The notes under the pieces are model-generated. The model was not told the DNA's origin and did no database searches. It saw nothing but the letters and a program-made list of their open reading frames with translations. Positions 8,267 through 64,000 of a DNA stretch of 64,000 bases are shown piece after piece; position 1 is the stretch's first letter; each line of letters starts with the position of its first letter. The position numbers and the translations under genes were made by a program. The stretch is taken from the NCBI RefSeq assembly GCF_041146345.1, contig NW_027191405.1, positions 372,001 to 436,000 on the forward strand, given 5' to 3'. This DNA comes from Neodothiora populina (taxonomy: Eukaryota).

Positions 8267-9521
<1,255 letters not shown>

Positions 9522-11949: not shown

Positions 11950-12920
11950 GTGTGGTTGAAATGCATTGAGCTTGTCGATGCCTTCTTGAAATACAGCGTT
12001 GAGCCGCCAGCCCGGATAACTCAGATCAAGACTGGGCTTTCGAATGCGTTGACAAAAAGAAAAAGCCAATGCCCAAGCCGATGCCGCTAACGTCGAGAAT
12101 GCCCCTGGACAAGATGCCAATGGTGCCGCTAAGGCCGATGCTGCTAATGCTACTAAGCAGCCGAAGCCGGACGCCAAGGAGGAGAAACATAAGGCCGGTG
12201 GCAAGAGCGAGGCTCCTAAGGACAAGAACGATAAGGGTAAGGGCAAAGAGGTCAGAGGCAAGAAGTCATCCATTGGCCTGGGCGTCACTTCAACCTTGAC
12301 CAAAACCGAGGCTGGGAGGACCGTTCGAGACAGGATGATCACCGAACAAATCACTCAGTGCCTGTTTGTCAAATTGCTCGAGAAACTCCTGAAGGGAAAA
12401 GACAGCGACGACTTGTTTGTAAAAGGGCTCGCTGAGAACAAAAACGAACTCAGTCACCCTGAGGCTTAGAAGAACGCCGGTGATAAGCCTACAGAGGATG
12501 ATGAAGCCGAGGCTGGAGATGATGACCGGACGCGCGATGCAAGCCTATGCGAGCACGATCACGGCTGCCATCTGTTTGTCGAATTTTTTCTACGAAGGTG
12601 ATGATTGATGCTCTTGTCGCTGCTGGGATGGACCCGACGGAAGTCGGTACGATCTCTAAGCACGACTCGAAATGGTACCTGCTTCGCTTCCGGAAATGGA
12701 GCAGGCCCGCCTAGGAAGAAGTCTCGTGGGTCGCAAAAGAGGTCGGAGAACTTGTGAGCATCGCTGTTGACAAAGGGCCTTGGCCTCCCATGAATACTAT
12801 TACTCTGGAGATGCACCAAGTATTGGAGAAGGAGATCTTCAAAGTGAGAACCCAATCAGGCGGGATTGGGCGAAGCGTTGAAAGAACGCCATCGATGGAG
12901 TCAAGCGAGGTACACGAATG
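11950..12920 (+). pseudogene. Decayed orphan gene with an Ala/Lys/Asp-rich segment followed by globular-looking sequence
   Basis: Long coding-like frame 12053-12466 without a proper start. In-frame TAG stops at about 12467 and 12712, and frame changes at A- and T-runs. Confidence 0.35.
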
Positions 12921-15049
12921 AATTGCAAAGAATGGAAGCACCGAAGCTTAGTGCAATCGACGTCGTATATAAAAATTGTTGTGGCAGGGAAGAATGTAAG
13001 AGGACTACCTTACGACAAGCACTTGATGGCTTCATCTTGTGCTAGAAAAAGCGTTGACACGATCATCGGACAAGATTTCCCAGCAGACCTACGGCCCATT
13101 CACCCTGGCATCTCTATAAAATTACTCTGATGAAGATGAACACCTTCCTCCTGAACGCCAAGGTCCTTCCGCAGGTCTTCGATCCTTACACATCTTATAC
13201 TATGTACTATATACTACCCTCTGGACAGGCGATACCAAGAGATGGACGGTTCCCTAACCCCTTGGCCGACAATGTGAGCGATTCTTCTACGCACATAAGA
13301 AGGAGCATCTTACAACCTAAGTCAGGGGCAGAGAAACGTTTGATAGCAAAGTCCCCCTTTGATGGAAAAACGCACAGATTGGCATCAACCAATCCCATGA
13401 AACAGAGGAGAAAGGTCGATGATTATATAAATACTGGCGCTCGAGATTGTGTAACGTGGACCAGGCTGGCCTAAGTCGGAGCCTGTAACCTTCCTTTCGA
13501 CAGGCTCAGGCTATACGTACCCAGGGTGCCGCAAGCTCACCCAAGTTGCAGAGATTGAGCGGTTCTTTGGGATGCAACAGTGCTATGCTACAACGCGAAG
13601 TTACACCGATTAACTATAAAAGTATCACAAACTTAAGCTATCCCATTATTAAGGGCCTGAAAGATTCACGGCAAAGACCGGAATACCATGGGTATTCTGG
13701 AGGGCCGTAGATCGGCCCCCTGCTTCTCCACCTACCCACCCACACACACACACTCCCAGGGCTCAATCAAGCTGTTCTCCGATACCGCCAACAACTCCTA
13801 TACATTACCGGGCGAAGGCAGGGCGTTATAACACATCATTGTCAATCTTCGAGATTGAAGAAAGATTTGGCTTGTGCCTGCTGGTTGGGTGTGTGAGGAT
13901 CGCCTGAAGAATTGCAACAGTAGCATCCATGCAAGTGCTCGTCAATATCGCTTTCCTAAGGCAACAAAGCGGACATGATTTCGAAGCATCGCACGTGCTC
14001 GGTGGTGTCCTGTGATGGTCAGACTCTGCTGCAGAGTCACAGGTTCAGTGGCGGTTCTGTCAGTAAAGCTGTAGCGCTCAGTGAAAATGAACTCAGAGAG
14101 TGCGTGAGGAGCAAAATGACCAGGCATCCACTCCGTTCAATAAATCGAAGACAGGGATCCCGTGATTGAAGATCTTCTCCTTTTCATCTTTCATCTTCAT
14201 CGTTCGTTTTCGACACGCGCTCCGCCAGCGGGTCTCTTCTTCTCCGTTGTCACTACGCACTATATACACAATCGTAACGCACGATTATGTCTCAAACTTC
14301 CGCTCCCCATTAAAAGCCCCTGTGAAAGTGCGAGTGGTGCTCCGTCAGCAAGCGCGACTGTGTCCCTATGGGGGAGTACTCTGTGCGCGCGTTCAATCGC
14401 TATGTTGTGGCGATTCGTGCCCGCGAACAGTTCGAGGCGGGTCGCGGGGCTAGCGCTGCCGCCATCGGTAGGTTCAGGCTGCTCCGCGACGTTGTTACGC
14501 GCGCAGGAAAGATGCTTATGTCTACATAATGTTATTGGTGGATCTTGCATGAGATTGAAGCGACAATGGGTTTGTGTTGGCTGTATCTTGGTGAGAAATG
14601 AAGGATACTCTGAGTGGAGATTCAGATTACCTCACTCAGCTGTGAGATTGACTTCACTAAGCTCTTCTCCATTGCTTAGACTTTTTCCAAATCAGCAGGT
14701 GACTCCTTCAAAGACAGTAGCATAAGACGTATAGACCCCCAACTTCTTCAGAACGCCACACGAGTTCAAGTCGATGAGTTCAAGTCGATCAATTACTATC
14801 AAGATAGATACTCAGCTAGAAAAATTGCTATTCCATTTCCGAAATCATATCTCTTTGCCTGTGATTCATGAAGTGGACCAATGTATGATCCTTAGATTGC
14901 AGTTCCAGCTTCCATCCTATGTTTGTTTCCAGTGTGGTCACCACAAACCGTACCAGTGTTGCCATTTCGATATCCAGAGTCCACTGTTATCCCCCCACCT
15001 AGCAGCGCTCCGTAAGTTGACCGCTATGATATCTCAGGAATTACCTTAC

Positions 15050-15510
15050 GCACGCAACTACGCCCTCCAATCGATCGACGGGAGCATATGGCGAAGTCAT
15101 GGATATGCTACTACACGGATTCGAGCTCCAATAAGTCTCCGAGGCATGGTCGGCTTGTTCAGCAATAGTAGCTGAGGTAGTACGCCCATGACTCAGACTC
15201 GAAAGATGAGAATATCATGCACGTCAACAGAAGACGTTGTCGACACGCGATCCTTCAGCATCCTCACAGTCCCGTCTGCTGTCGTGATCTCACACCAATA
15301 ATCAGTGCACTCAATCGGCAGGTCTAGGAAGTTGACCACGTCGCTTCAGGCATGCTCCGGATCCGCCGTCAATTAGCACCTCCTAAAGAAAGCCTCTCTG
15401 TCCTCCCGCTCCCGCTCCTGAGGCTCGAGGCGTGCTTCTGTGTAGAAGTTCGAAATGGTTGGGGCTGGGCCCTGCTCCGGGTCCTCATGCCTCTCGATAG
15501 TAAGCTTCAG
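15050..15510 (-). pseudogene. Relic of an F-box-like fungal protein
   Basis: One minus frame reads ...AFFRRC*LTADPEHA*SDVVNFLDLPIEC...*VMGVLPQLLLLNK. FLDLPxE and PxLL motifs are interrupted by several stops. Confidence 0.35.
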
Positions 15511-15711
15511 GGTGTTTCCCGCATGGTCCACCTAATCTCTCTCTGCAGCATAATTCACTGATACGGTTAATGTGAGAGGTGCGGTGGCTGCCTTCCGTGG
15601 AATCTGCATTCCCTTGGCCAGGACTGTGCGCACTTCCGGTGAGCTGTTGACGACGTCCAACAACGTGCAGGCGGGGTTGCTGCGCTGTACCTTGCAAATT
15701 GGCTCGTTTTA

Positions 15712-15902
15712 GTCAATGATCAACCGATGTACAGTGACCAATGTCTACTGAGGAGTCGATGACTCTTGAATGAATGGTTGAAAAGTCTCCGATCAGAGGT
15801 CAATGATTCCTCAATGACTAGATACTCAATGACTACTCGGTGAATGGCGGATGATCCCTCAATGACCAGTCAATGACTACACGGTCAATGATGAATGACT
15901 AG
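15712..15902. repeat. Cluster of TCAATGAY motifs
   Basis: About 8 copies of (g/c)tcaatga(c/t) in 190 bp. Shares an exact 18-mer in inverted orientation with 28858-28875. Confidence 0.6.
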
Positions 15903-17982
15903 AGCCGAGCTCCTTTGTGGATCGGCAGTAGGGAGACACTATCTCGAGGAGCAGTGCGCAGTGTGCAGCGAGCAGTGAGTGGTGGACAAAGCTTTGTGGA
16001 TACTATCGATAGGCAGATCTTCCATAGTCAATTGTTAAGCTGTGGGTTGGCTGACTCAGCATACTGAGCCGGCGTCGCCAAGATTGTATCTCAGACTTCA
16101 CTCCGTGAGTATGTCCCTGGCCTTGTGGCTTAAATAGTGGTTCAAGTACTGGTATAAGGATATAACCATGTCGAGATTTACTCGAAAGGAGATTAGGTCG
16201 TCGCTATGGTTCTTGTTCCTCCAGTCTTCGGAAGTCAAGAGCTCGCGAAGACTTTGACAGAGCTTTTGTGCTCGAAACTCTGCCAGTCGGTCTTCGTCAA
16301 CCTCCCTTTCTCTGCCCGATAGATTTTGCACTCTTGGAGATTGCCGTGTGTAGGACTTCGAAATCATGTTCGAGAGAACTCGTAACATCTTGCTGTGCGT
16401 TGCTGTGTATGCATAGTATTTCTGCCGCAATTTTCTGGACTTTAACCTCTCCATTACTGACAATATCCGTAGGCGATAATCACTCGCTCCAGCTATCGAT
16501 ACTACTCGTCGGTGTCGTCAGAGGTTCATTGCCGTCGTATAGCGGGTGTAAAGCGATGCTTCGTCATGCAATTTCTAGGGGTGTCCTACCGATGTTTGAG
16601 CACGATCTGACGGCTGTTAGGTCATCGAACATCCATCCCTTCCCTGCAGGGTGGAACGAGAGATGCGCGTTGTTTTCCACGGCTCTAGCCAAGTTGCTGC
16701 ATGATATATACGCGCCAATGATGCGACCGAGCCGAGCACGAATGATGGCGACTCTGCAGTCGTGCAGCGTCAATGGCTTGCGATATCAACGACCGGTGGG
16801 CGCGTCGTGATCTCAGTCGTCGACTTCAGTGTGTCGAGCCAGGATCCGCCGGCTGCAAGGGAACCACCAGCTTCCCGTTGACGTGCCTGGTCGTCTTGAG
16901 GGCGTACATGATGAGGCGGTGTCCGAGTGGACGATGACGCAGTTGCGTGCGACGAATGGTTCATGGTCGCTCAAAGCCTCTCGAGAGCCACCGCGCTGAA
17001 TGTATGCCAAACAAGTGATGGTGACTTTGGCGCCATGGTGTGCCAAGTCTGCTGCGCGTAACGAAGAAATGGCAGGTAAGTCAATGTTTCATTTGCAAGG
17101 ATCATGAAGAGGAAGAGAAGAAATCATATACCATCGTCTTGGAAGATCGTCGCAGATCGTGCGATTGTTATGGCGCTTGGCTGCTGCGAATGGTTATTGC
17201 CTTTGGGTATTATGGTGGCTCATCTGTCCCTGCTGGTATAGACACAATTCCCTTGGAGATGATGCGAAGGTGGATGTTATCCCGCTTGACAACAAGTCAA
17301 TGCGTAGAGAGCGTCTGCCGCACAGCGATCGTGGACGGCGCAAATATTTCCCAAGGGTCGATCACCCCCGACGCAGCACGAGTGGTATTCATATAATACA
17401 GAGTTCATGTCATTTTCGTTGCGGCGGCTGGGTGGCGGGATGGCAGAGCGGATGACTTGAACCCCACTTCGCAGCTAACCCGGGTTCACCCCCCAGCAGC
17501 CGCAACAATCTTTAGGGGAGGAGAAAGAGATGTAGTAGTCGGTGCAGGCATAACTACATGGTAAAGCTGCTTGCACAATCGATTTGCGAACTCTGAAGAA
17601 GCATGATGGTACGACGGTTCGGTGATACCGTACCATATGCTTCTTTTTGCTCTTTTGGATGTCGCACACTTGTAGTCGTCGTCGTCGTCGCGATCCAGAG
17701 ACTGACTGGTGATTCAGATTCGACTCGCTCGGTGCCACAGAAGCGCAGAAGTACAGGAACATGAACGCGAACTCAGAGAAAGGAATGAGTGCCCAGCGTA
17801 CATACAGCACGAAGGTATGTCTAATTATACATGGTCATCGGCAGGAGCGTTGCACTGCAACTTCCTTGACAAGGTTGCGAGAAAGGAGACTGCAAGCAAC
17901 GGAGTACAGCTAACCAATTGTTCAAACAATCCAACCTATATATACCCAGATGGTAGGTGGAATGTTACGAATCAGACAAATA

Positions 17983-18107
17983 GTGGCCGTAGTGTAGTGG
18001 CTAGCGCACCTCAAGAACAAGCCCTTCAGTGGGAAGTCCACCTCTGGGTGTCAGTAAGAGGCGGTCTTCATGAGGGGGTCCCTGGGTTCGAATCCCAGGC
18101 GGTCACA
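17983..18107 (+). ncRNA. Non-canonical tRNA-like Pol III gene, copy 1, with a long structured insert in the anticodon arm
   Basis: Acceptor stem GTGGCCG/CGGTCAC plus A. A-box TAGTGTAGTGG, D stem GTGT/GCGC, stem CCTCA/TGAGG, T arm CCTGGG-TTCGAAT-CCCAGG. T5 run at about 18124. Confidence 0.8.
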
Positions 18108-18199
18108 AGATTCTTCTTGCCCCTTTTTGTATCATGGCTAAACCAATCTAACCCTTATATGTTGCGGTTACTGAGGGAGTCTGTACGGATCAAAGTAGA

Positions 18200-18328
18200 G
18201 TGGCCGTGGCGTAGTGGTCAGGGGCACTACTCAGAACAAGTCCTTAAGTGCGAAGTCCACCCGTAGGGGTGTCGGCAAGAGGCTGTTTTCGAGGAGGGAG
18301 TCCTGGGTTCGAGTCCCAAGCGGTCACA
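18200..18328 (+). ncRNA. Non-canonical tRNA-like Pol III gene, copy 2 (diverged tandem paralogue)
   Basis: Same acceptor stem, A-box TGGCGTAGTGG, B-box GGTTCGAGTCC, homologous insert and a T6 terminator at about 18337. Confidence 0.78.
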
Positions 18329-18768
18329 AGATTCGATTTTTTCTTTTTGTATCGTTTTTGTTGTTGGTACTTTGCGATTTCCATCGATGCTGGCTGGGTT
18401 GTATATATCCAATTACCTGCGCTGCATCTCTGGGCATGGAAATCGCGTCTTCTCACATTGCACTGTTTTGCCCCTTACGGGATGGGTGTTCTCATCACTT
18501 CCAGATCCAATGTTATGTCTCTATACACATCTACGCGTGCGCGTCTTGCACTCCTTCACACGTTCTTCAACCTATTCATCACAAGTGGGCGAAGTTCATC
18601 ATTTCCAACCCCTGCGGATGACAACAGGCGATATCACAAATCTCAAAATCCGTCAATTATCGTATACAGCGGCTTTTCTTCAACCCGTGCGATACAAACC
18701 ATGACATTTACGCAGCTTCACTCTCACAATCTCCATCAAACCAATCGCATCCGAATCCGACCCACAAC

Positions 18769-19092
18769 ATGACTCACTTGCGTTACAACCAGAGTCCACC
18801 ACGCCTCGCACATCTGGAGACACACACACAGAGACAACAACGCGACAAAGTCATACCATCCTCCTTTTCCTTCGACCTCCTCCAGGAGCAATTCAAGCGA
18901 CAGAACCGAGTAGACGGTCACATTACAGCCCCTCCCGTCCCATGCCGCTTGGCAAAGTCTCCGATACCAAAAGTCGCATCTCTTGACCCTATTGACGCGC
19001 CTTTGACCCTGAAGTCACGCTTCCTTGACCCCCTGCTCATGATGACAGTAGCTGTGGAAGGCGATATTGACTCTTTCGAGGTGCTGCTCTGA
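18769..19092 (+). CDS. Hypothetical 107-aa orphan protein
   Basis: ATG in good context (cacaacATG) after a C/A-rich leader. No recognisable domain. Confidence 0.2.
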   Translation: MTHLRYNQSPPRLAHLETHTQRQQRDKVIPSSFSFDLLQEQFKRQNRVDGHITAPPVPCRLAKSPIPKVASLDPIDAPLTLKSRFLDPLLMMTVAVEGDIDSFEVLL

Positions 19093-19773
19093 AACGCGCA
19101 TGAGGGTTGTTGTTTCGATTGCTTAAGACACCTTGAGCTGAGGTAGACCTGAGGTAGACCTGAGGTAAGCTTTACGAGGAGGGGGGGGCGGGGGGCGGGG
19201 GCAGGCAGAGGATGGAGATGATAGCTAGGAACTGACTACACTACCTGAGATATACAGATCGTGTTTCGCGGTGAGAAGTAAGTCTTCATCTCTCTCTGAT
19301 TGTTGCTTTACTGGCTGACTTGATGGTTTGGAGGAGCTAGCTATATAGGGTGTCTTATTTTCTCGAGGTACCTCACGGACGAACCACAAATTTACCACAA
19401 GTAAACCACGAGTGAGACAAGCGCAGAGCATGAACAATGTCTGGATGACGCTTTAGCCACGAGCTGAGAGTAAAGAAATCACGAACAAGCGGAGTCCGGA
19501 GCTGGAGTAAAGCAAGAGGTAAGCCAGACCCGATAAGAGGAAAGCAGGAGTCGAGGTTACATTCGGTACTGACATCCGTGGTCCACTCGTGGTCTCTTCC
19601 TACTTGAAAACTACTTCATCATGGTTGGATTCTGGTGTACAAGAGCTGGAGGCTGAAGGAGCGATACGGCCAGAGAGGATGGGGCTGACATGCAGTCACA
19701 AAGGCAGGTTGAGGGTAGGCACGAAGCAGATGATTAGAACGACAAAGTCCCGTAGGGATGCTGATATGAAAGC

Positions 19774-21360
19774 TTAAAGTTTACTCGCCCTCTTCTTCGC
19801 CTTCGCCCAGAGTCCAGCCTCTTCATACCCCTGGGGCACACCATCAAATATATCCCTCTCGACAGCTCTAGCATTGACATGACGCGCATTCAGCTGACCG
19901 ATCTCACCCACGCACAGTAGCCGCATCGCCGTCTCCATTTCGGCCTTGAGGATCTCAAACACGCGTTCTACGCCCGCTGTGCCGCCGGCTCCGAGACCGA
20001 ATAGCGCGTTCCTTCCCATGCCTACGCCCTTCGCGCCCAGAGCCAGGGCTTTGACGATGTCCGTGCCGCGCTTGATGCCGCCGTCGACCCAGAGCTCGAG
20101 GGAGTCGAAGACGTGGGGGCAGAACTTCTTGCACTCGAGCAGTGTGTGGATGGACGGTGGCGACGTGTCTGCCGAGCGGCCGCCGTGGTTCGACAGGATG
20201 ACGGCTTGGATCTGCGGGGCGAAGCGGGCGGCGAGTTCGACGTCTTCGTGGGTCTGTACGCCTTTGAGAACGATGGGGAGGGAGGTCTGCGCTGCTAGCC
20301 AGGGCAGTGTTGTGTGCCATGTTAGGTCGCACGCTGTGCCTGCGAACATGGCTGCTGCTACACTGCCTGATCCTTGCTTTGTAGGGACACTTGCTGCTGT
20401 GGGTGATGGGGTGGTAGTGGAGGATGAGCCTTCTTGTGCGGCGGAACGGACAGGTAAGTTGGCGCCGACGTTCTTGCCTTCTCGTTCGTCGTCCTCGCGC
20501 TTTCCTGGCACAGGGGCGTCGAGGGTCAGAACAATGAATTTGATCTGGGGGATCTTCGAGACGCGGCGGATCATGTCTTCCGATTTCTTGATGTCCATGT
20601 TTACGTATAGTTGCCACCCGAAGATTTGGTCTGGCGCGGCACCGGCGCATATTTGCTCAGGCGTTTGCGAAGCATTATTGGAGATGATCTGGCAGGCGCC
20701 ATATGTCCTACAGGCTTGCGCGATGCCGTGTTCGCCGTCAGGATGACCGAGACGCGCCATTGCTGCTGGAGAGACAAAGAGCGGGATGTTGACTTTGTTG
20801 CCTAGGAGTGTAGAGCTGGTGTCGCATTTGGTGACGTCGTGGAAGACGCGTGGGCGCAGCAGGATGTTTCTGTAGACGGTGTTGTTCAACCGCTTTGAGA
20901 TGAGATCGTCACCAGCGCTGTAGTAGTATGCCCAGGCCTTCTTGCTCATCTTCTGCGTGGCCAGCTTCTCGATGTCGTCCATGTTCAGGCAGTCGTCCAG
21001 CGTCATCAGCGACTCTTCCACGGCTGGGTCATCGGCAGGTGCTTTCTCTACGGCAGGCAGAGTAGACTCGTCTATGGTTCCAATCTTGGCCGAGGCCGGC
21101 AATGCCTCCTCCAGTGTCCCAGGAGGATGTATCGGGTCGTATTCTTCTGTCGCATCTTGACCGGCCAATTGCAGTATGATCCTGCTTCCTCCGGGGTGTT
21201 CGGGGACGAAAGTGGTGACATCGTAGACGTTGCCGTACAGAATCACCCAGCAGGACTCGGCGCTGCGATGTTGCTGGACTGATGTCTGTGAGTTGTGGGC
21301 CAGTCGGACAGAAAAGAAGATCGCCGACTCACCTTCTTCGTATGTGTATACCTTGCCCAT
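19774..21360 (-). CDS. CYB2: Flavocytochrome b2 / FMN-dependent L-2-hydroxyacid dehydrogenase with PTS1; intron 21279-21332
   Basis: Cytochrome b5 domain (VYDVTTF...HPGG). FMN-domain motifs LRPR, SPAAMA, SNHGGR, DGGIKRGTD. C-terminal SKL. Confidence 0.93.
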   Translation of the reverse strand: MGKVYTYEEGESAIFFSVRLAHNSQTSVQQHRSAESCWVILYGNVYDVTTFVPEHPGGSRIILQLAGQDATEEYDPIHPPGTLEEALPASAKIGTIDESTLPAVEKAPADDPAVEESLMTLDDCLNMDDIEKLATQKMSKKAWAYYYSAGDDLISKRLNNTVYRNILLRPRVFHDVTKCDTSSTLLGNKVNIPLFVSPAAMARLGHPDGEHGIAQACRTYGACQIISNNASQTPEQICAGAAPDQIFGWQLYVNMDIKKSEDMIRRVSKIPQIKFIVLTLDAPVPGKREDDEREGKNVGANLPVRSAAQEGSSSTTTPSPTAASVPTKQGSGSVAAAMFAGTACDLTWHTTLPWLAAQTSLPIVLKGVQTHEDVELAARFAPQIQAVILSNHGGRSADTSPPSIHTLLECKKFCPHVFDSLELWVDGGIKRGTDIVKALALGAKGVGMGRNALFGLGAGGTAGVERVFEILKAEMETAMRLLCVGEIGQLNARHVNARAVERDIFDGVPQGYEEAGLWAKAKKRASKL

Positions 21361-49758: not shown

Positions 49759-50604
49759 ATGCCGTTCAGTCATTTCATGCACATGAACTACGCCGAGGAC
49801 CAGGATATAGCTGGCTTTTATGGGCAAAGTCCAATATCCCAAGAGCTCGGCATACCGACGTCCGGCTCGCTCGATTCTGGCTATGCGGAAGTGGAACCCT
49901 TCGATAAGACCAGTCGATATCCCAGCTCTACCAATCTGGACTTCAATCAGACGTGTTCCATAGGCACAGGCGATGAGAGCACTTTGGACTTTGGCAATTT
50001 TGCCTTCTCACCGATACTCATGCAACCCAATGAGTCTAACATAGGAGCCTATACAGTGTCTCCCCGACTTGACACAAAGTTTCAGCGTTTAGTAGACTCG
50101 ATGCAGCCATATCAGACCTCTTCAAGTGTAGGAGATACATCTGAAGATGGCCACTTAGCGTCAGTCTCCAGCGGCTCTCCGCAACATGCCCCATCAGAAC
50201 CTGGTGCTAGTCCTCAACGAATGCAGCAGCAACAGCAGCAGAAGAATCGAGTTTGGGATAACATGTCCACAAATGCTATTCACAAGGTTGAAGACAGTCC
50301 AGTGGAAGTTGTGTGTAAGACAGAGGAGCCAGCAGCCCCGAAGACAGCACCTTCTCGAGGACGTCCCAGGAAGCGAATTCCTCACACGGCTGTGGAGCGT
50401 CGGTACAGAGAGAATCTCAATGCACATTTGGAGAAGCTACGTTCAGCAGTGCCGAACCTGACTGCGGCACAGCGAAGGAAGGCTACTGATGGCGCGGATC
50501 CGATGAAACCTAGTAAATGTGAAGTACTGATCGGCGCTGTCGAGTACATCAAGCGTCTCGAGGACGAGAACGAACGTCTCAAACGAAAGTCTAACGAGGT
50601 ATGA
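49759..50604 (+). CDS. bHLH transcription factor, SREBP/Tye7-type (Tyr in the basic region)
   Basis: HTAVERRYRENLNAHLEKLRSAVP...KCEVLIGAVEYIKRLE. GRPRK precedes the basic region. Confidence 0.88.
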   Translation: MPFSHFMHMNYAEDQDIAGFYGQSPISQELGIPTSGSLDSGYAEVEPFDKTSRYPSSTNLDFNQTCSIGTGDESTLDFGNFAFSPILMQPNESNIGAYTVSPRLDTKFQRLVDSMQPYQTSSSVGDTSEDGHLASVSSGSPQHAPSEPGASPQRMQQQQQQKNRVWDNMSTNAIHKVEDSPVEVVCKTEEPAAPKTAPSRGRPRKRIPHTAVERRYRENLNAHLEKLRSAVPNLTAAQRRKATDGADPMKPSKCEVLIGAVEYIKRLEDENERLKRKSNEV

Positions 50605-51309
50605 ACAAATTTCACGAATTTGCAACGAGTCACGGGGTTGAGCGCTAGACCTCTGTTTCCTTTTTCTTTCTTGTTTTTCTGGGAGGCCAAATTGAAGGTC
50701 GGAGCACCTCAAAGGGCGGGCGGATGCTTTTGCGCTTTATCGGTACATCGGATAGAGATAAGTAAGGTAGCTTCTATGCCTGCTTGGTGCCATGGGGTCT
50801 CAACGGGCGCTGGAGGGAAAAGGCACTAGCTGCGCCTCAAGCGCGGCTTCAAAGTACATATTTGCGTAGCACTTTAGACGAATCCCTTTCGCTTCTGATA
50901 GCAGGGATTGTGGAATTTAGACTCGAAGCTGTTTTGACCCTACACTGACAGTGTCCAATGGTGGTGGAAGAGATGAAGAATGGGAGTCAAGACAGAGTTC
51001 AGTCAGGTGGCTGATCCGCAAGTGCCACCACCAAACCCTTTTTCACGCGACCGGAAGCTCGGACTGTTTTCCTGCGTCACCTCGTGCAGCTTGTTGTACG
51101 GAAAGTTTGACCCTGAAATACCTTACGTCCATGCCAGGACATACGGCGATTGTTTTGCCCAATCGATATCTTCCTACAGTACACTACACGTGAGGGTCCA
51201 GCGGCATGATCTGGTAAGGCATCTCAAAGAGCTCGTGCAGCATGTGAATCAGGCACACAGCAGCCAAATCCAAACTCGATCATTACCGTTGCCGTTACCG
51301 AAGTCCAAA

Positions 51310-58154: not shown

Positions 58155-61100
58155 CAAGAGAAAGCAAGCATAGGAGTAGGTCCTGTTTGGTCGATAGATA
58201 AAGCTATCTTTGCTGTTGACAACTTGGCACATCAGAAAGAGCGCGTATGTTCCGAACAAGCGGGACATAATTTGTCTATGGAGATCTTCCTGAGAGCTCG
58301 GCAGGATTCAGCAACAGCCCCGTTGTATTTGATAGTGTAGGATCAGTACATTTATTTGGTGCTCAACTGAAGTTTCCCCGATATGCCCCATCCCCAAGCT
58401 TCCCCACCCTTCGTTGCGCCTCGTCAGAACGACATCTAGGGGTGCATTACAATCTGCACGTGGTGGGCTTCATGCTGTACATGCTGGGGATGACGTCTCT
58501 AATTATTTGTTATATGAATCTCGCCTACCTGGTGAGAGACTCGATGGTACGAGTGCGAGTCGAGGGCTGGCAGGCTCCATTGTTTTGTAGATAGTCTCCT
58601 TGTTAGGAGCTGCTGTTATCCTGACACTAGTTGTGCAACACGAGGTCTAGACATCGTCGTCAAGCTTTCATCATACGGGAGTTTCGCGACAACCGTCGTA
58701 TGACATCCTCTGCCAGAACTTAGGCAAGATTAAACTGAATGTCAACAGGACTGGTTCGTATCGGTAGGCTCGTTTCTGGCCCTGTCGTTTGACGACAGAG
58801 AGCGACAGTAACGCTGTGGCACTTCCGTATGTTACAGCGAAATGAAGCACGCTTGAAGCAGGTAGACTTCGTACTCGCGAAGCCACTGAAGATACAAGCA
58901 TTTACACGAATCTCCGCGTCAGCGCCGCACATACTGACATACAATGTTTCGAGTCCGAGGCCTACCTTACCCAGACGTTCTGCCGCTACCTACGAGGTAA
59001 CAAGTGCAGTTGCGGTACTCGCATGCCACATCCGCAAGATAAGTACTATAACGAAGTCTTTTGCGCCCGGGTCGGAGCACACCTGGAAACAAGCTTACCA
59101 TGCTTTACTTAGAGCATCATGCAGGATGCAGCCTTCCATTGTTCCGTCCTGGCTACAGCAGCCATTCGAATTGGTGGCTGGCGGCGCGGGCTGCACCTAC
59201 AGTACTGTACATTGAACCGCCGCCACATATATATGCAGGGTTCGAACTAGTTCACCCAGAAATGCGCAGATGCAGGTTATTGTAACGCGATAGATTACTA
59301 CTGTGACCCAAGGGGGGCGACCTTTGATTTACTTTTACTACAGCGCATACTGTACATGCTTTTTGCTTTGCTCGCCTAGACGTCTTCTTTTCGGTGCTTT
59401 CGGTATCAGAGGCCGGCGAGACCCTCGCGTTGTCTTGCAGATGCAAAGAAACTGCAGAGTCCTCTGCATGTGCTTTTTGTTTTTCTTGACTTCATCTCCA
59501 TGAGTTTCTCCTTCAGGGGACCACGGCGGCGACGCATTGACAGAGTTCGGTAATCCGTCTTTTTTTGCAGCAGTTCAATTACCCGTACGGTAGCGCAGCC
59601 TCTTTGCCGGATGTGTTTGGCTCCGATACGGGTAGGGCTGGGCTGGTTTCGGATGTTGTGCATGTTGTTTTTCTTGTTATGAGAGATTTTGTGCACTTCT
59701 TACTGTGAGGCTTCTGGGCAACGAGAAGCCTCGATTCATAGCACAGGTGTTACAGTCGATTATGAGCGTGAAGAATCCAAGATTGACCTGTCTACACAGA
59801 ATTCGCACGTTCGCAAAAGAATCGTTCAACAGCATCCAAGCGAACGTGGATGGCGGTGGAAGTAATCCGACTATTGTTTAACTTTACGGACTACCATGGA
59901 CTCGAACTATTCCTCTGTAGCTAGTGCTGATAGAACCAACACTGCCCCCGCGCTAGCTCTGCTTTAAAGACTCGAGCAGGGAAATGCACCTTTACTCTTA
60001 AATTGCTTCTCATATCGACTACAGTACTACGAAGCACTCTATCGATGCACAGGAAGCTACATTACACAAAACAGAAAGCTAATTTTTGCAGCTGCAATTG
60101 TTCACCACCACATGTTGACAGAAAATTATGCTGCAGCACATTGTCCATCACACTTCGAATGACCTGCGGAAATAGAGGAAACGCTGCAGCATATTCTCTA
60201 CCATACTCCAAATTAACCGAGGAGAGAAAGTGTACCTGACCTGTCGACGTCCGCGTATACCGCTCCCACTTCTTGTTCCGCAGACCCACGTCGAATGGTT
60301 CAAGGCTGTGATAATGGCACTCGAGCTTACATCCAATTGCCCTTCTTAGACATATATTACGTGTAAGATGTTGCTATCGGACTTGCTGTCGTCGAAAGAT
60401 TCGTCTTGATATTCCTTTCTGCGCATTGGTATCTATGAGATGATGCTAGAGGAGAAACATGAGATGGTCAAGTAAGGTACGTGTCAAGCGGCGCTTCGCG
60501 ACTGCAGCGACTTGAGTTTGTCCTACTTCTTGTGTTTTGTCACAGAAGTTACTCCCCGTCATCTATGCCTTTTTGTTCTAAATCAAGCTCTATATCACCT
60601 TCAATCTACAATAGAAGTCGATGAGAAAGATAAGATTGCTTCGGCTTGAACAGCTTCGTCTTGATAGTTTCGGTTGCGGATATCGAGAAGAAAGGTGTTT
60701 CACTGCCCTCAGACTCGCCCTCTCTCGCTCAGCTTATCCACAAGACACGAATGGGATCCCGTCCTCTATCAATTTCGGCATACTGCAAAGCTCATAATCC
60801 AACACGCATCCCTGTACAATTCCTCGATCAACAAGTCAACCTGCGTTGTGCTTCATGCATGCTTGCGTATATCGAGTAGACATGCACTGACACGGTATAC
60901 AACCGTGAGAACCATAAACCCCATGTTTCACGCTTCCCCTCTGTTCTCCTCTGCAGCTCGTGACGAAGTAGCTAGGTAGCCATAGCCTGTCGTCGTGGCT
61001 ACGTAGACTTAGCACTACAAGACCAGCAATCAAGGAGAAGACAGGGGGGCAGTATACGTTCCAGCTCTCCCGATCAGGTCAGTAGTACCACTTCTCCATC

Positions 61101-61884
61101 TCCAAGTCCAACCCCGACTCTCAGTGCCCCTTGCTGCTGGTCCTTGGATGTTGTCGGTATCAGCAACAAGATCATCACGCTCTGCGCACCTGATTTAGCC
61201 ATGGCCTTTTCTGCCCTCTTTCCTAGTGCCGAGAACGACGGTAAACCAGCAGGACAATAGCGCACGATGATAGAAAGACCTACATAGCAGACAGCAAGTC
61301 GTCACAGCAGTCATACATATTTCCAAAACAATGCCAAAAAGAACATCGCCTTCATCCGAGGCAGGGTGCGTGAGTTCCGTAGCGAGCCCACTCGTCCGTC
61401 TCTGATTCCACGACTTGCTGCTCGAGAGACAATTCTAGACATGTGCGCCTAGCGAAAGCTCATATATTCGTGCTTTGTTGCGCTATTGAGTGTGGCACAG
61501 ACACATGGCTAGAAAACAGAAACAGACGTCTGATGCTCCCTTGTATGCCTATACCAAGCGAAAGAGCTTAACATGACGCAGGTACTTAGACTATATCGAG
61601 ACGCCAGGCTCGGGAACAAAGTGCCGCGTGATGCCTCGCTGTGAGATCGCGGGCATGGTCTACGGAAGGGTAGTGGAAATGAGACGAGATGGAGAAGGAA
61701 AGGAGATTGATGGTGGGATTATAGAGCTTGGAGGGTTTGCTTGAGTGCGTGCTTGGGTTTTGGTTTCCTGTACGGCATTCTGGGAGGGGTCTGTTTATAT
61801 AAAGGGGGGGGGGGGATTCGGGTCGCTGCTCTGTTGATCTTGTGGGTACATGCTGGAGCGGACTGTGGATTGTATGATGAAGCA

Positions 61885-61990
61885 GATGGTAGTGATGAAT
61901 GTTTAAGATAGTAGTGATGAATGTTTGGAATAATAGTGATAATATGTTTGAGATAATAGTGAAAGATGTCATAGTAGTGAAGGACGTCGG
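61885..61990. repeat. ~22-bp minisatellite GATAGTAGTGATGAATGTTTRA, about 5 units
   Basis: Two near-identical units followed by three diverged ones. Confidence 0.8.
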
Positions 61991-62362
61991 AGACTAACAG
62001 ATATCTGAGATGCAAGTAGATGTCCGACATAGCGGAAAGATATCAAAGACGAGAGAAGTCGTGAACGTATAGAGTAAAAGAAACAGGAGAAGAAGAAAAA
62101 TTTGCATGTCAGGGTATATATCTACATATCTCAATCAATTCGTTCCACACCGCATCGAACCATACCGTACCGTACCGTACATTCAACCTCAAGACCTGCT
62201 CTGCCCTTATTACTATTGGGAGGTTCTTGTTCAAATCTCTCGTATTCGTATCTTGTTCCAGTAGTCTCTCCCGATCAGGTTCCTGGATCCTCATGTTCTG
62301 CTTCGACGGTGTCCATTCCAAGACGTCGCAAGCGGCCTTATCTTTTCTTGTCGTAGTCCTTC

Positions 62363-64000
62363 TCAGCTCCGGTATGGCTCAATGTCCTGCATCATATCAA
62401 AAGGCAGGTCCTGCCAGTTCCACGGGAACGGAAAGGGCATCTGCGCGAGAGCTTCCCACGCGTCTTGTCCTTCGAATGTCTGTTTTCGGGTAGTGTCAGC
62501 ATTACTTTACTCTCTACGACCAATACAGGGTATGGCAGATATGCGACTGGAAAAGGACAAGACGCAAAGAAACAGAGCAAAACACTGACCTGTCCGCCAC
62601 AACTACTAGGAGCACCGTAACCCATAGTAGTAGCAGACATCCCACCCATATCGTGAGGCGCAGGATTGTTGTCAAGATTCATCCGTCGAATATGTTCCAA
62701 GGCCTCTGCGTTCAGTCCTGCCATCTGACCGGATTGGTCATGCATGCTGCTGCTACCAGCCGCAGCCGCCGGGTTCCATTGGAAGCCACTGCCTGGTAGT
62801 GAGTTTGGTGTGAGTTGTTGAAGTGGTTGTTGACTGGCGTGATATTGTTCTTGTGTGCTGACGGACGCCGTGGAGATAGGTGGATGATGCGCCAGGTTTA
62901 TTTCATGTTGATCTCGAGGATATGGCTGTGGTGGCATCTGTTGCTGCGATTGCTGCTGCTGTGGCTGCTGCTGTTGTGGTTGCTGTGGCTGCTGCTGATA
63001 CGGCTGATATTGCTGCTGCTCCGCACGCTGTTCTGCTTCCTTCTCGTCGCTGACTGTTATTCTTGCTGCTCGCAGTAGTTCCTTCATAATTGCAAGAAAC
63101 AAATGTCCATGACTTTCAATGTTCTCGCCGGAGAATCGTGATGTGTATTCAATAAGTGTTTCGGCAGCCTTGAGCTCATCAGGATCCCGGATGGGATGTG
63201 GAAGTTTGTTGATAAAGAGGATAACAAAGATGGACAACGGAAAATGTGTCCCGGCCCTGCAAGACATGTCAGAGAATGTGCTGCATCACGACCAAAAAAA
63301 AGGCTCCCTTACCAGAAAAAGCTCTCCGCTTCGTGCGGTATAGCTCCCAGCACATCAATGGACTTCTTCGCAGCCTCCACGCATCGCTCGGAAAAGACAA
63401 ACTGCAGTGGATCCGATTTCCTCCTTGCGCTATCACTGCTCGGACCCGGTCTTCCATTGCGGTATGCCTTCATCCGGTGTATCGTGATCACAGAGTAATG
63501 GTATTCAAGATGTAGACGAGCCATTTCGAAACTAAAAGGCTGGCACCAGGCGTCAATTGGATGGCCGGGTCGCACGCTAATGGGAAGTGCTTCTCGCCAT
63601 TGTTGGAGCTTTTCGTCCAGCTCAAGCACGGCGACGGTGATCTCGGCCTCGGAGCGTGATACGGTAACCGTGGAATAAAGTCGATACAAAATCTCTGCTT
63701 GAATCCTGGCCATCCAGGCGTTGAAATAGAACATATCCACGGTGTCGGTGTCTCCCTCCCGATTGGTTATTTCCAAGGAGTCTCCCAGCATGCTCTCCGG
63801 GAGCGCCAGTTTGCTGCCATGCAGCGCCTGTGCCGGTGGACGTCCGGTTCGGAACGAAGTCGCCTGATCGACTATCACTGCACACCAGAAAACCTGGTGC
63901 CGTTGCTCTCTTTCGAATGCGCTGATGTTGTTGAGGTTCGTGGTCTCGTGGAGTCCGATTGCATGGGAGGTCCGGACCGCGGCACTGGCCAAAAAGAAAC
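62363..64000 (-). CDS. Fungal-specific transcription factor (Zn2Cys6-associated middle homology region), 3' part; introns 63257-63312, 62480-62589
   Basis: AIGLH...EREQRHQVFWCAVIVDQATSFRTGRP motif, Gln-rich region and acidic/aromatic tail ending ...DIEPYRS*. Confidence 0.88.

Follow-up and report, generated by a model that had tools for sequence, protein, structure and literature searches.

Two tRNA-like genes lie in tandem on the plus strand of a 64-kb stretch of a Neodothiora populina contig (NW_027191405.1, positions 372,001 to 436,000), which is referred to below as the window. We are highly confident that both genes originate from a tRNA-Val and that the insert interrupting each of them occupies the canonical intron position of tRNA genes. 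Our preferred reading, which we hold with moderate confidence, is that the pair represents aberrant, probably non-decoding tRNA-Val paralogues. Both copies combine a G at position 33 with an acceptor/T stack of 13 bp, and it is the combination of these two features that makes efficient decoding unlikely.

The two copies are separated by a gap of 92 bp (Table 1). Their homology is beyond chance: blastn aligned them with 79.4% identity over 160 columns (E 2.6e-28), and 97 of 129 columns were identical in a MAFFT alignment. The ends are the same in both copies at 15 of 15 positions, with GTGGCCG as the 5' acceptor strand and CGGTCAC followed by A73 on the 3' side. Because leader, trailer and TATA region are alike as well, we attribute the pair to a tandem segmental duplication of 217 bp. 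The layout given by the initial annotation, that is two diverged copies of 125 and 129 nt lying 92 bp apart, with identical ends, A and B boxes and oligo-T runs, can be seen in the sequence in every detail. The region was found in two DNA runs only, both from one sample that is probably the source, and the Logan contigs of this source run were identical to the window at the pair. These contigs break in the T run after copy 2 (18338-18341), where two of them overlap by 4 bases.

Table 1. Features of the tandem pair, with positions in the window.
Feature	Position	Strand	Description
TATA-like element, unit 1	17937-17944	+	TATATATA; -46 to -39 relative to the start of the tRNA part
Copy 1	17983-18107	+	125 nt; tRNA-like unit, from sequence
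Copy 1, 5' exon	17983-18019	+	37 nt; acceptor 5' strand, D arm, anticodon-stem 5' strand (18009-18013)
Copy 1, A box	17990-18000	+	TAGTGTAGTGG; from sequence
Copy 1, insert	18020-18069	+	50 nt; canonical 37/38 intron position
Copy 1, 3' exon	18070-18107	+	38 nt; A38, anticodon-stem 3' strand, 5-nt variable loop, T stem, acceptor 3' strand, A73
Copy 1, B box	18085-18095	+	GGTTCGAATCC; zero-mismatch
Copy 1, terminator T5	18124-18128	+	begins 17 nt past A73 (16-nt trailer)
TATA-like element, unit 2	18155-18161	+	TTATATG; -45 to -39; aligns with the element of unit 1
Copy 2	18200-18328	+	129 nt; tRNA-like unit, from sequence
Copy 2, 5' exon	18200-18238	+	39 nt; 11-nt D loop, C11.A24 mismatch, without nucleotide 26
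Copy 2, A box	18207-18217	+	TGGCGTAGTGG; from sequence
Copy 2, insert	18239-18289	+	51 nt; also at 37/38
Copy 2, 3' exon	18290-18328	+	39 nt; 6-nt variable loop, acceptor 3' strand as in copy 1, A73
Copy 2, B box	18306-18316	+	GGTTCGAGTCC; zero-mismatch
Copy 2, terminators T6 and T5	18337-18342, 18344-18348	+	begin 9 nt past the tRNA end

In both copies AGAACAAG comes right after the 5' strand of the anticodon stem; AGAACA fills positions 32 to 37 and is followed by the insert, by a single nucleotide (position 38) and by the stem's 3' strand. When the insert was cut out by script at 37/38, ARAGORN with default settings returned tRNA-Val(AAC) for both copies, with lengths of 75 nt (copy 1) and 78 nt (copy 2), and drew each of them as a cloverleaf. 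Subject to this removal, AAC is located at positions 34 to 36 of a 7-nt loop in both copies. The initial annotation had correctly placed AGAACAAG and a further 50 nt or so where a loop belongs in both copies. Its statement that a normal anticodon loop is missing applies to the gene with the insert kept, and fails once the insert is removed at 37/38, which leaves a 7-nt loop with AAC, albeit one with A32 and G33.

Position and length of both inserts agree with what is known of eukaryotic tRNA introns. According to the available text of one review (PMC4090602), introns at the canonical position measure 6-133 nt and are located by a ruler mechanism, not by sequence motifs, and in some fungi most tRNA genes bear an intron. 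Both inserts start at the canonical site, one nucleotide 3' of the anticodon, and fall within this range, while exceeding the 11-28 nt reported for the introns of valine tRNA genes in Aspergillus niger (PMC6108506). As in canonical introns, whose 3' part can pair with the loop, in predicted folds the 3' end of the insert can form a helix with the loop's 5' half, AGAACA with UGUUUU in copy 2 and a shorter helix in copy 1. Such pairing is common in pre-tRNAs and is no proof on its own. Judged from its sequence, the most plausible identity of the insert is that of an ordinary intron at the canonical position, putatively spliced, in a gene derived from tRNA-Val(AAC).

Other placements of the intron were less satisfactory. 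By eye, every placement that brings back U33 left copy 1 with CUU and C37 and gave no consistent result for copy 2. A search of the plus strand for spliceosomal-type ends (GT...AG plus a branch site) whose use would bring back a loop revealed none. ARAGORN without intron search reported nothing in the window. With intron search, it forced copy 1 into a tRNA-Lys(CTT) with a 50-nt intron at 31/32 and C37. Nothing in copy 2 corresponds to this model, which also leaves the valine-type body out of account. Copy 2, with the insert left in, was found in pseudogene mode only, as Arg(TCG). Since the Lys(CTT) and Arg(TCG) models disagree with each other and the former places C37 in copy 1, we rejected both of them. 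Pseudogene mode combined with intron search produced three further "tRNAs" on the minus strand (9167-9340, 50019-51144 and 60883-63122). Their introns range from 80 to 2152 nt and one of them lies inside the GAPDH gene, and we took all three as false positives.

Kinship with known tRNA-Val was judged by eye, without an isotype-specific model. The 14-mer CCGTAGTGTAGTGG at 17987-18000 of copy 1 is identical to human and Aedes tRNA-Val; a text search matched it in 44 papers, and it lies within the 5' halves of human tRNA-Val AAC/CAC (PMC5318995, Table 1) and within Aedes tRNA-Val (PMC10766806, Table 1). The pair also resembles the 11 tRNA-Val(AAC) genes of A. niger (PMC6108506, S1 Table) in its class I cloverleaf, A73, the D-stem 5' strand GTGT, an identical 5-bp T stem CTGGG/CCCAG, AAC followed by A37, internal A and B boxes, and an oligo-T run a few nt downstream. 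The variable loop is similar and differs at one position (AGGTC in A. niger, GGGTC in copy 1). In contrast to the A. niger genes, which have U32 U33, a 12-bp stack and no intron, the pair has A32 G33, an extra C-G pair giving a 13-bp stack, an intron of 50/51 nt and a different acceptor sequence. A match to a described tRNA isotype had been named in advance as an outcome that would speak against a novel RNA, and such a match is largely what we observed: ARAGORN and the valine-type body both indicate tRNA-Val(AAC), with G33 and the thirteenth pair as the exceptions.

The cloverleaf is better preserved in copy 1 than in copy 2. All 22 stem pairs are formed in copy 1, including the 6 bp of its T stem (18081-18086/18094-18099), and its loop consists of A32, G33 (18015), the anticodon A34 A35 C36 (18016-18018) and A37. 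Copy 2 forms 19 of 22 pairs; C11.A24, A28.G42 and, within the T stem (18302-18307/18315-18320), C18303.A18319 are broken. Its loop contains A32, G33 at 18234 and the anticodon AAC at 18235-18237. The D stem has 4 bp, and the D loop 8 nt in copy 1 or 11 nt in copy 2. When the cloverleaf was enforced, its energy lay above the minimum free energy by 3 kcal/mol for copy 1 and by 16 kcal/mol for copy 2.

Against this background, two deviations are common to both copies. The first concerns the T arm, CCTGGG/TTCGAAT/CCCAGG, in which a 6-bp stem is followed at once by the 7-nt acceptor strand. The additional base at the foot of the T stem has a partner (C18081-G18099 in copy 1, C18302-G18320 in copy 2) and hence forms a pair and not a bulge. 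In both copies the acceptor/T stack comprises 13 pairs instead of the usual 12 (7/5), drawn as 7/6 or, by ARAGORN, as 8/5 with a U8.G pair. The second is the loss of U33, which is replaced by G33 in both copies. Because the 13-bp stack and the loss of U33 occur in both copies, both are older than the duplication. The initial annotation had called attention to the extra base and to a 7/6 or 8/5 stack, and had described the anomalies as shared; the T arm and ARAGORN bear out the former, and each copy indeed has both the 13-bp stack and the U33 loss.

Taken together, the two deviations would be expected to hamper decoding. U33 is described as highly conserved, almost universal and important for decoding, and G33 as curtailing decoding, in the available text of PMC11415595. 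The accessible part of a review (PMC7609411) describes 13-bp acceptor domains for tRNA-Sec alone, where they serve special factors. These reports weigh against the idea that copy 1, at the least, functions as a tRNA-Val(AAC) isodecoder, which would be spliced, have A34 converted to inosine and be used in translation despite G33 and the extra pair. Two further points argue in the same direction: both variants of tRNA-Val(AAC) in A. niger (11 genes) are intron-less, 7/5 and equipped with U33, and the isodecoder copies of that species are identical or 1-3 positions apart, compared with about 75-80% identity between the two paralogues studied here (PMC6108506). Still, copy 1 has much of what such a tRNA needs, namely 22 of 22 pairs, AAC with A37, A73, a valine-type body, an intron of ordinary position and length, and intact Pol III signals. 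In addition, at least one fungal tRNA works with G33, the tRNA-Ser(CAG) of Candida (PMC8178436). The Candida albicans gene is likewise a fungal nuclear tRNA gene with G33 in place of U33, but unlike the pair it is class II, with a long extra arm, a 12-bp stack and demonstrated decoding. Taken together, we regard a working isodecoder as distinctly improbable and prefer to see aberrant paralogues in the pair.

The 13-bp stack could also suggest a tRNA-Sec-like or suppressor tRNA, and UCA does occur at the 3' end of the insert, in copy 1 only. However, the long variable arm, the 6-bp D stem with a 4-nt loop and the UCA of tRNA-Sec (as described in the accessible part of PMC7609411) are absent from the pair, which has a variable loop of 5-6 nt, a 4-bp D stem with a loop of 8-11 nt, and the anticodon AAC. 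The lack of these three defining features refutes this explanation. Moreover, the selenoprotein pathway is reported as lost in Fungi in the available text of PMC10573291. At the gathering score, Rfam returned no family for the pair, as had been predicted, and a search of 521 bases at E up to 10 matched neither tRNA nor tRNA-Sec nor any other tRNA-type family, a miss that may stem from the insert alone, which was left in. Sub-threshold matches to mascRNA and Afu_298 scored far under the gathering scores and were taken as chance.

Both units carry signals of the Pol III type. The TATA-like elements upstream of units 1 and 2 presumably act as Pol III upstream elements, and the A boxes, B boxes and oligo-T runs are listed in Table 1. 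Eight B-box matches were found in the window, and only the two of the pair are free of mismatches. With one mismatch allowed, B-box-like 11-mers were enriched in the window (8 versus 2.05 expected; 0 of 100 shuffles reached 8). The six additional sites are located at 32759-59908, each with one mismatch, and all of them are without A box, T run and T stem.

A Pol III promoter that derives from a tRNA and is present in more than one copy is also what the head of a tRNA-derived SINE, or of another dispersed retroposed repeat, would look like. In this case, however, a terminator begins 17 nt past the tRNA end in copy 1 and 9 nt past it in copy 2, leaving neither a body nor an A-rich tail. The tandem arrangement with common promoter and trailer flanks indicates segmental duplication, not retroposition. 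No third copy was detected in the 64-kb window by sequence searches including blastn, and among the contigs of the source run (28 million letters) no other contig was at least 80% alike. A search of the window for a primer-binding-site-like complement to the 3' end hit nothing but the gene. The SINE explanation is close to refuted, and the sequence supports the earlier description of the pair as tRNA-derived Pol III-type units that end at the terminator and lack a SINE body. A metagenome scan with the 3' half GGGTTCGANTCCCANGCGGTCAC returned three loci, all of them GC-rich, resembling bacterial protein-coding DNA and without tRNA features, which we took as chance matches.

Concerning the genomic surroundings, the neighbour at 19774-21360 on the minus strand is a cytochrome b2-type L-lactate dehydrogenase according to Pfam, and its nearest Atlas clusters are ascomycete. 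GAPDH, VTC/SPX, MFS and ACBP genes are also present in the window. In the approximately 7 kb around the pair (about 12000-19700), none of the 13 scanned ORFs of at least 100 aa reached the Pfam cut-off; the sub-threshold matches in this region were HMW1C_N and iHKD. The ORFs that overlap the pair (17709-18266 and others) had no Pfam support.

We then compared the copies region by region for signs of decay or constraint. The 5' exons were 78% identical, the inserts 77% (40 of 52 columns), the 3' exons 82% and the trailers 71%. Over the 40 nt upstream the value was 53%, not far from the 45% obtained with the same aligner for flanks that are not homologous. The transcribed part (104 of 132 columns identical) was better conserved than the 5' flank formed by these 40 nt (23 of 43; Fisher p 0.003). 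Likewise, the acceptor, D and T stems differed at 3 of 34 columns, compared with 29 of 95 columns elsewhere (Fisher p 0.011). Conservation of the stems and of the transcribed part gives a weak hint of constraint, and the figures would fit purifying selection on the whole transcribed unit including the insert. They are fitted equally well by gene conversion between the tandem copies or by constraint on the A/B-box promoter. Since the A and B boxes coincide in part with the D and T arms, a constrained internal promoter can mimic the observed pattern.

In a neutral simulation, random substitutions were placed on copy 1 and the remaining stem pairs were counted. Between 9 and 13 substitutions broke 2.1-3.0 pairs on average and left all pairs intact in 8% to 3% of the trials. 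A copy 1 without a broken pair is not significantly surprising under simulated drift (P 0.03-0.25). The three broken pairs of copy 2 are about what neutral drift leads one to expect, so that this copy looks like the product of drift. That the insert is as conserved as the exons is to be expected if the greater part of the unit drifts as a whole. Decay is evident in copy 2. The initial annotation had called the pair maintained rather than decaying; this is not borne out by copy 2, in which 3 of 22 pairs are broken, the D loop has grown to 11 nt and nucleotide 26 is missing, a state close to that produced by neutral drift.

The likeliest alternative is a tRNA-like Pol III RNA that does not decode and is maintained by selection, with the 13-bp stack and G33 serving to avoid the elongation factor and the ribosome. 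Its active form could be the 125-nt unspliced RNA, a 75-nt charged or uncharged tRNA mimic, or a conserved excised intron of 50 nt. Several observations are in line with such an RNA: the anomalies are common to copies that are otherwise identical at just 97 of 129 columns, promoter and terminator elements are intact in both, and the stems and the transcribed part are more conserved than the regions they were compared with. Shared characters, however, are accounted for by relatedness alone when there are two adjacent members, copy 2 has three broken pairs and folds poorly into a cloverleaf, and the conservation can be mimicked by gene conversion or promoter constraint as described above. The insert points both ways. 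It is conserved like the exons and holds a CACC(C)/(G)GGTG hairpin, which is one base longer on each side in copy 2, and freed tRNA introns of yeast are reported to regulate mRNAs in the available text of PMC13079951. On the other hand, its folds differ between the copies and the z-scores are modest (-2.5 and -2.1). We rejected a conserved alternative fold of the insert, as the minimum-free-energy structures of the two copies differ; a 6-bp GUAGUG/CACUAC hairpin of copy 2 has no counterpart in copy 1. In view of these points, we consider a maintained RNA unlikely, though a reading to be taken seriously.

A more specific proposal would be a lineage-specific RNA derived from tRNA-Val and kept by selection in two copies, whose 13-bp domain and G33 divert it from translation in the way the 13-bp domain of tRNA-Sec does. 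Such an RNA could be a charged but non-decoding donor of valine, a tRNA decoy, or the host of an active structured intron of 50 nt. We consider this proposal quite unlikely.

For the aberrant paralogues that we prefer, the following course of events would explain the data. The ancestor would have been a nuclear Pol III-type gene derived from a cytoplasmic tRNA-Val(AAC), with an intron of 50/51 nt at 37/38. Before the duplication, its anticodon loop may have turned to A32 G33, losing U33, and an extra C-G pair at the base of the T stem may have extended the acceptor/T stack to 13 bp. The tandem duplication of 217 bp would then have yielded both copies. With its perfect cloverleaf, copy 1 may still be transcribed, end-processed and spliced. 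Transcription, splicing and the loss of decoding function at the pair are what we infer from these features. The two shared anomalies are real and unusual, yet they rest on a single duplicated locus with one degenerate copy.

In terms of annotation, the closest look-alikes are models of 128-133 nt labelled "Pseudo" or "tRNASeC" in A. niger NRRL3 (PMC6108506, S1 Table). Like the pair, these genes resemble tRNA genes, measure about 130 nt, contain an insert (about 55-64 nt by our own count, the table listing no intron length for two of them) and have long oligo-T runs. Several diverged copies of them exist, two of which stand in tandem about 208 bp apart. They differ from the pair in that, by eye, their inserts interrupt either the D loop or the anticodon stem and have the form GTAAG...AG, whereas those of the pair lie at 37/38 and have no such ends. 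Their bodies look like Asn(GUU) and Trp(CCA), and that of the pair like Val. The eight long models could be read by eye as complete tRNA-Asn(GUU) or tRNA-Trp(CCA) cloverleaves interrupted by an insert. These inserts look spliceosomal, with a GTAAG start, a CTAAC- or TACTAAT-like motif and an AG end. For A. niger NRRL3, just one Trp and three Asn tRNA genes have been reported (PMC6108506), and going by their sequences the eight long models may be the missing Trp and Asn tRNA genes. A word search of the literature for spliceosomal-looking introns in tRNA genes listed no paper on them.

If the pair consists of aberrant or decaying paralogues, its significance is mainly a matter of annotation. Intron-blind gene finders and Rfam miss the locus entirely, and finders that allow introns give it a wrong label, such as Lys(CTT) with the intron in the wrong place. 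Similar mislabelling seems to be behind the "pseudogene" and "SeC" entries in the published Aspergillus tRNA table. Should the pair be maintained instead, a 13-bp acceptor/T domain would exist in a class I tRNA derivative of eukaryotes beyond the selenocysteine system, and the pair could be used to learn how domain length and U33 control entry into the translation machinery.
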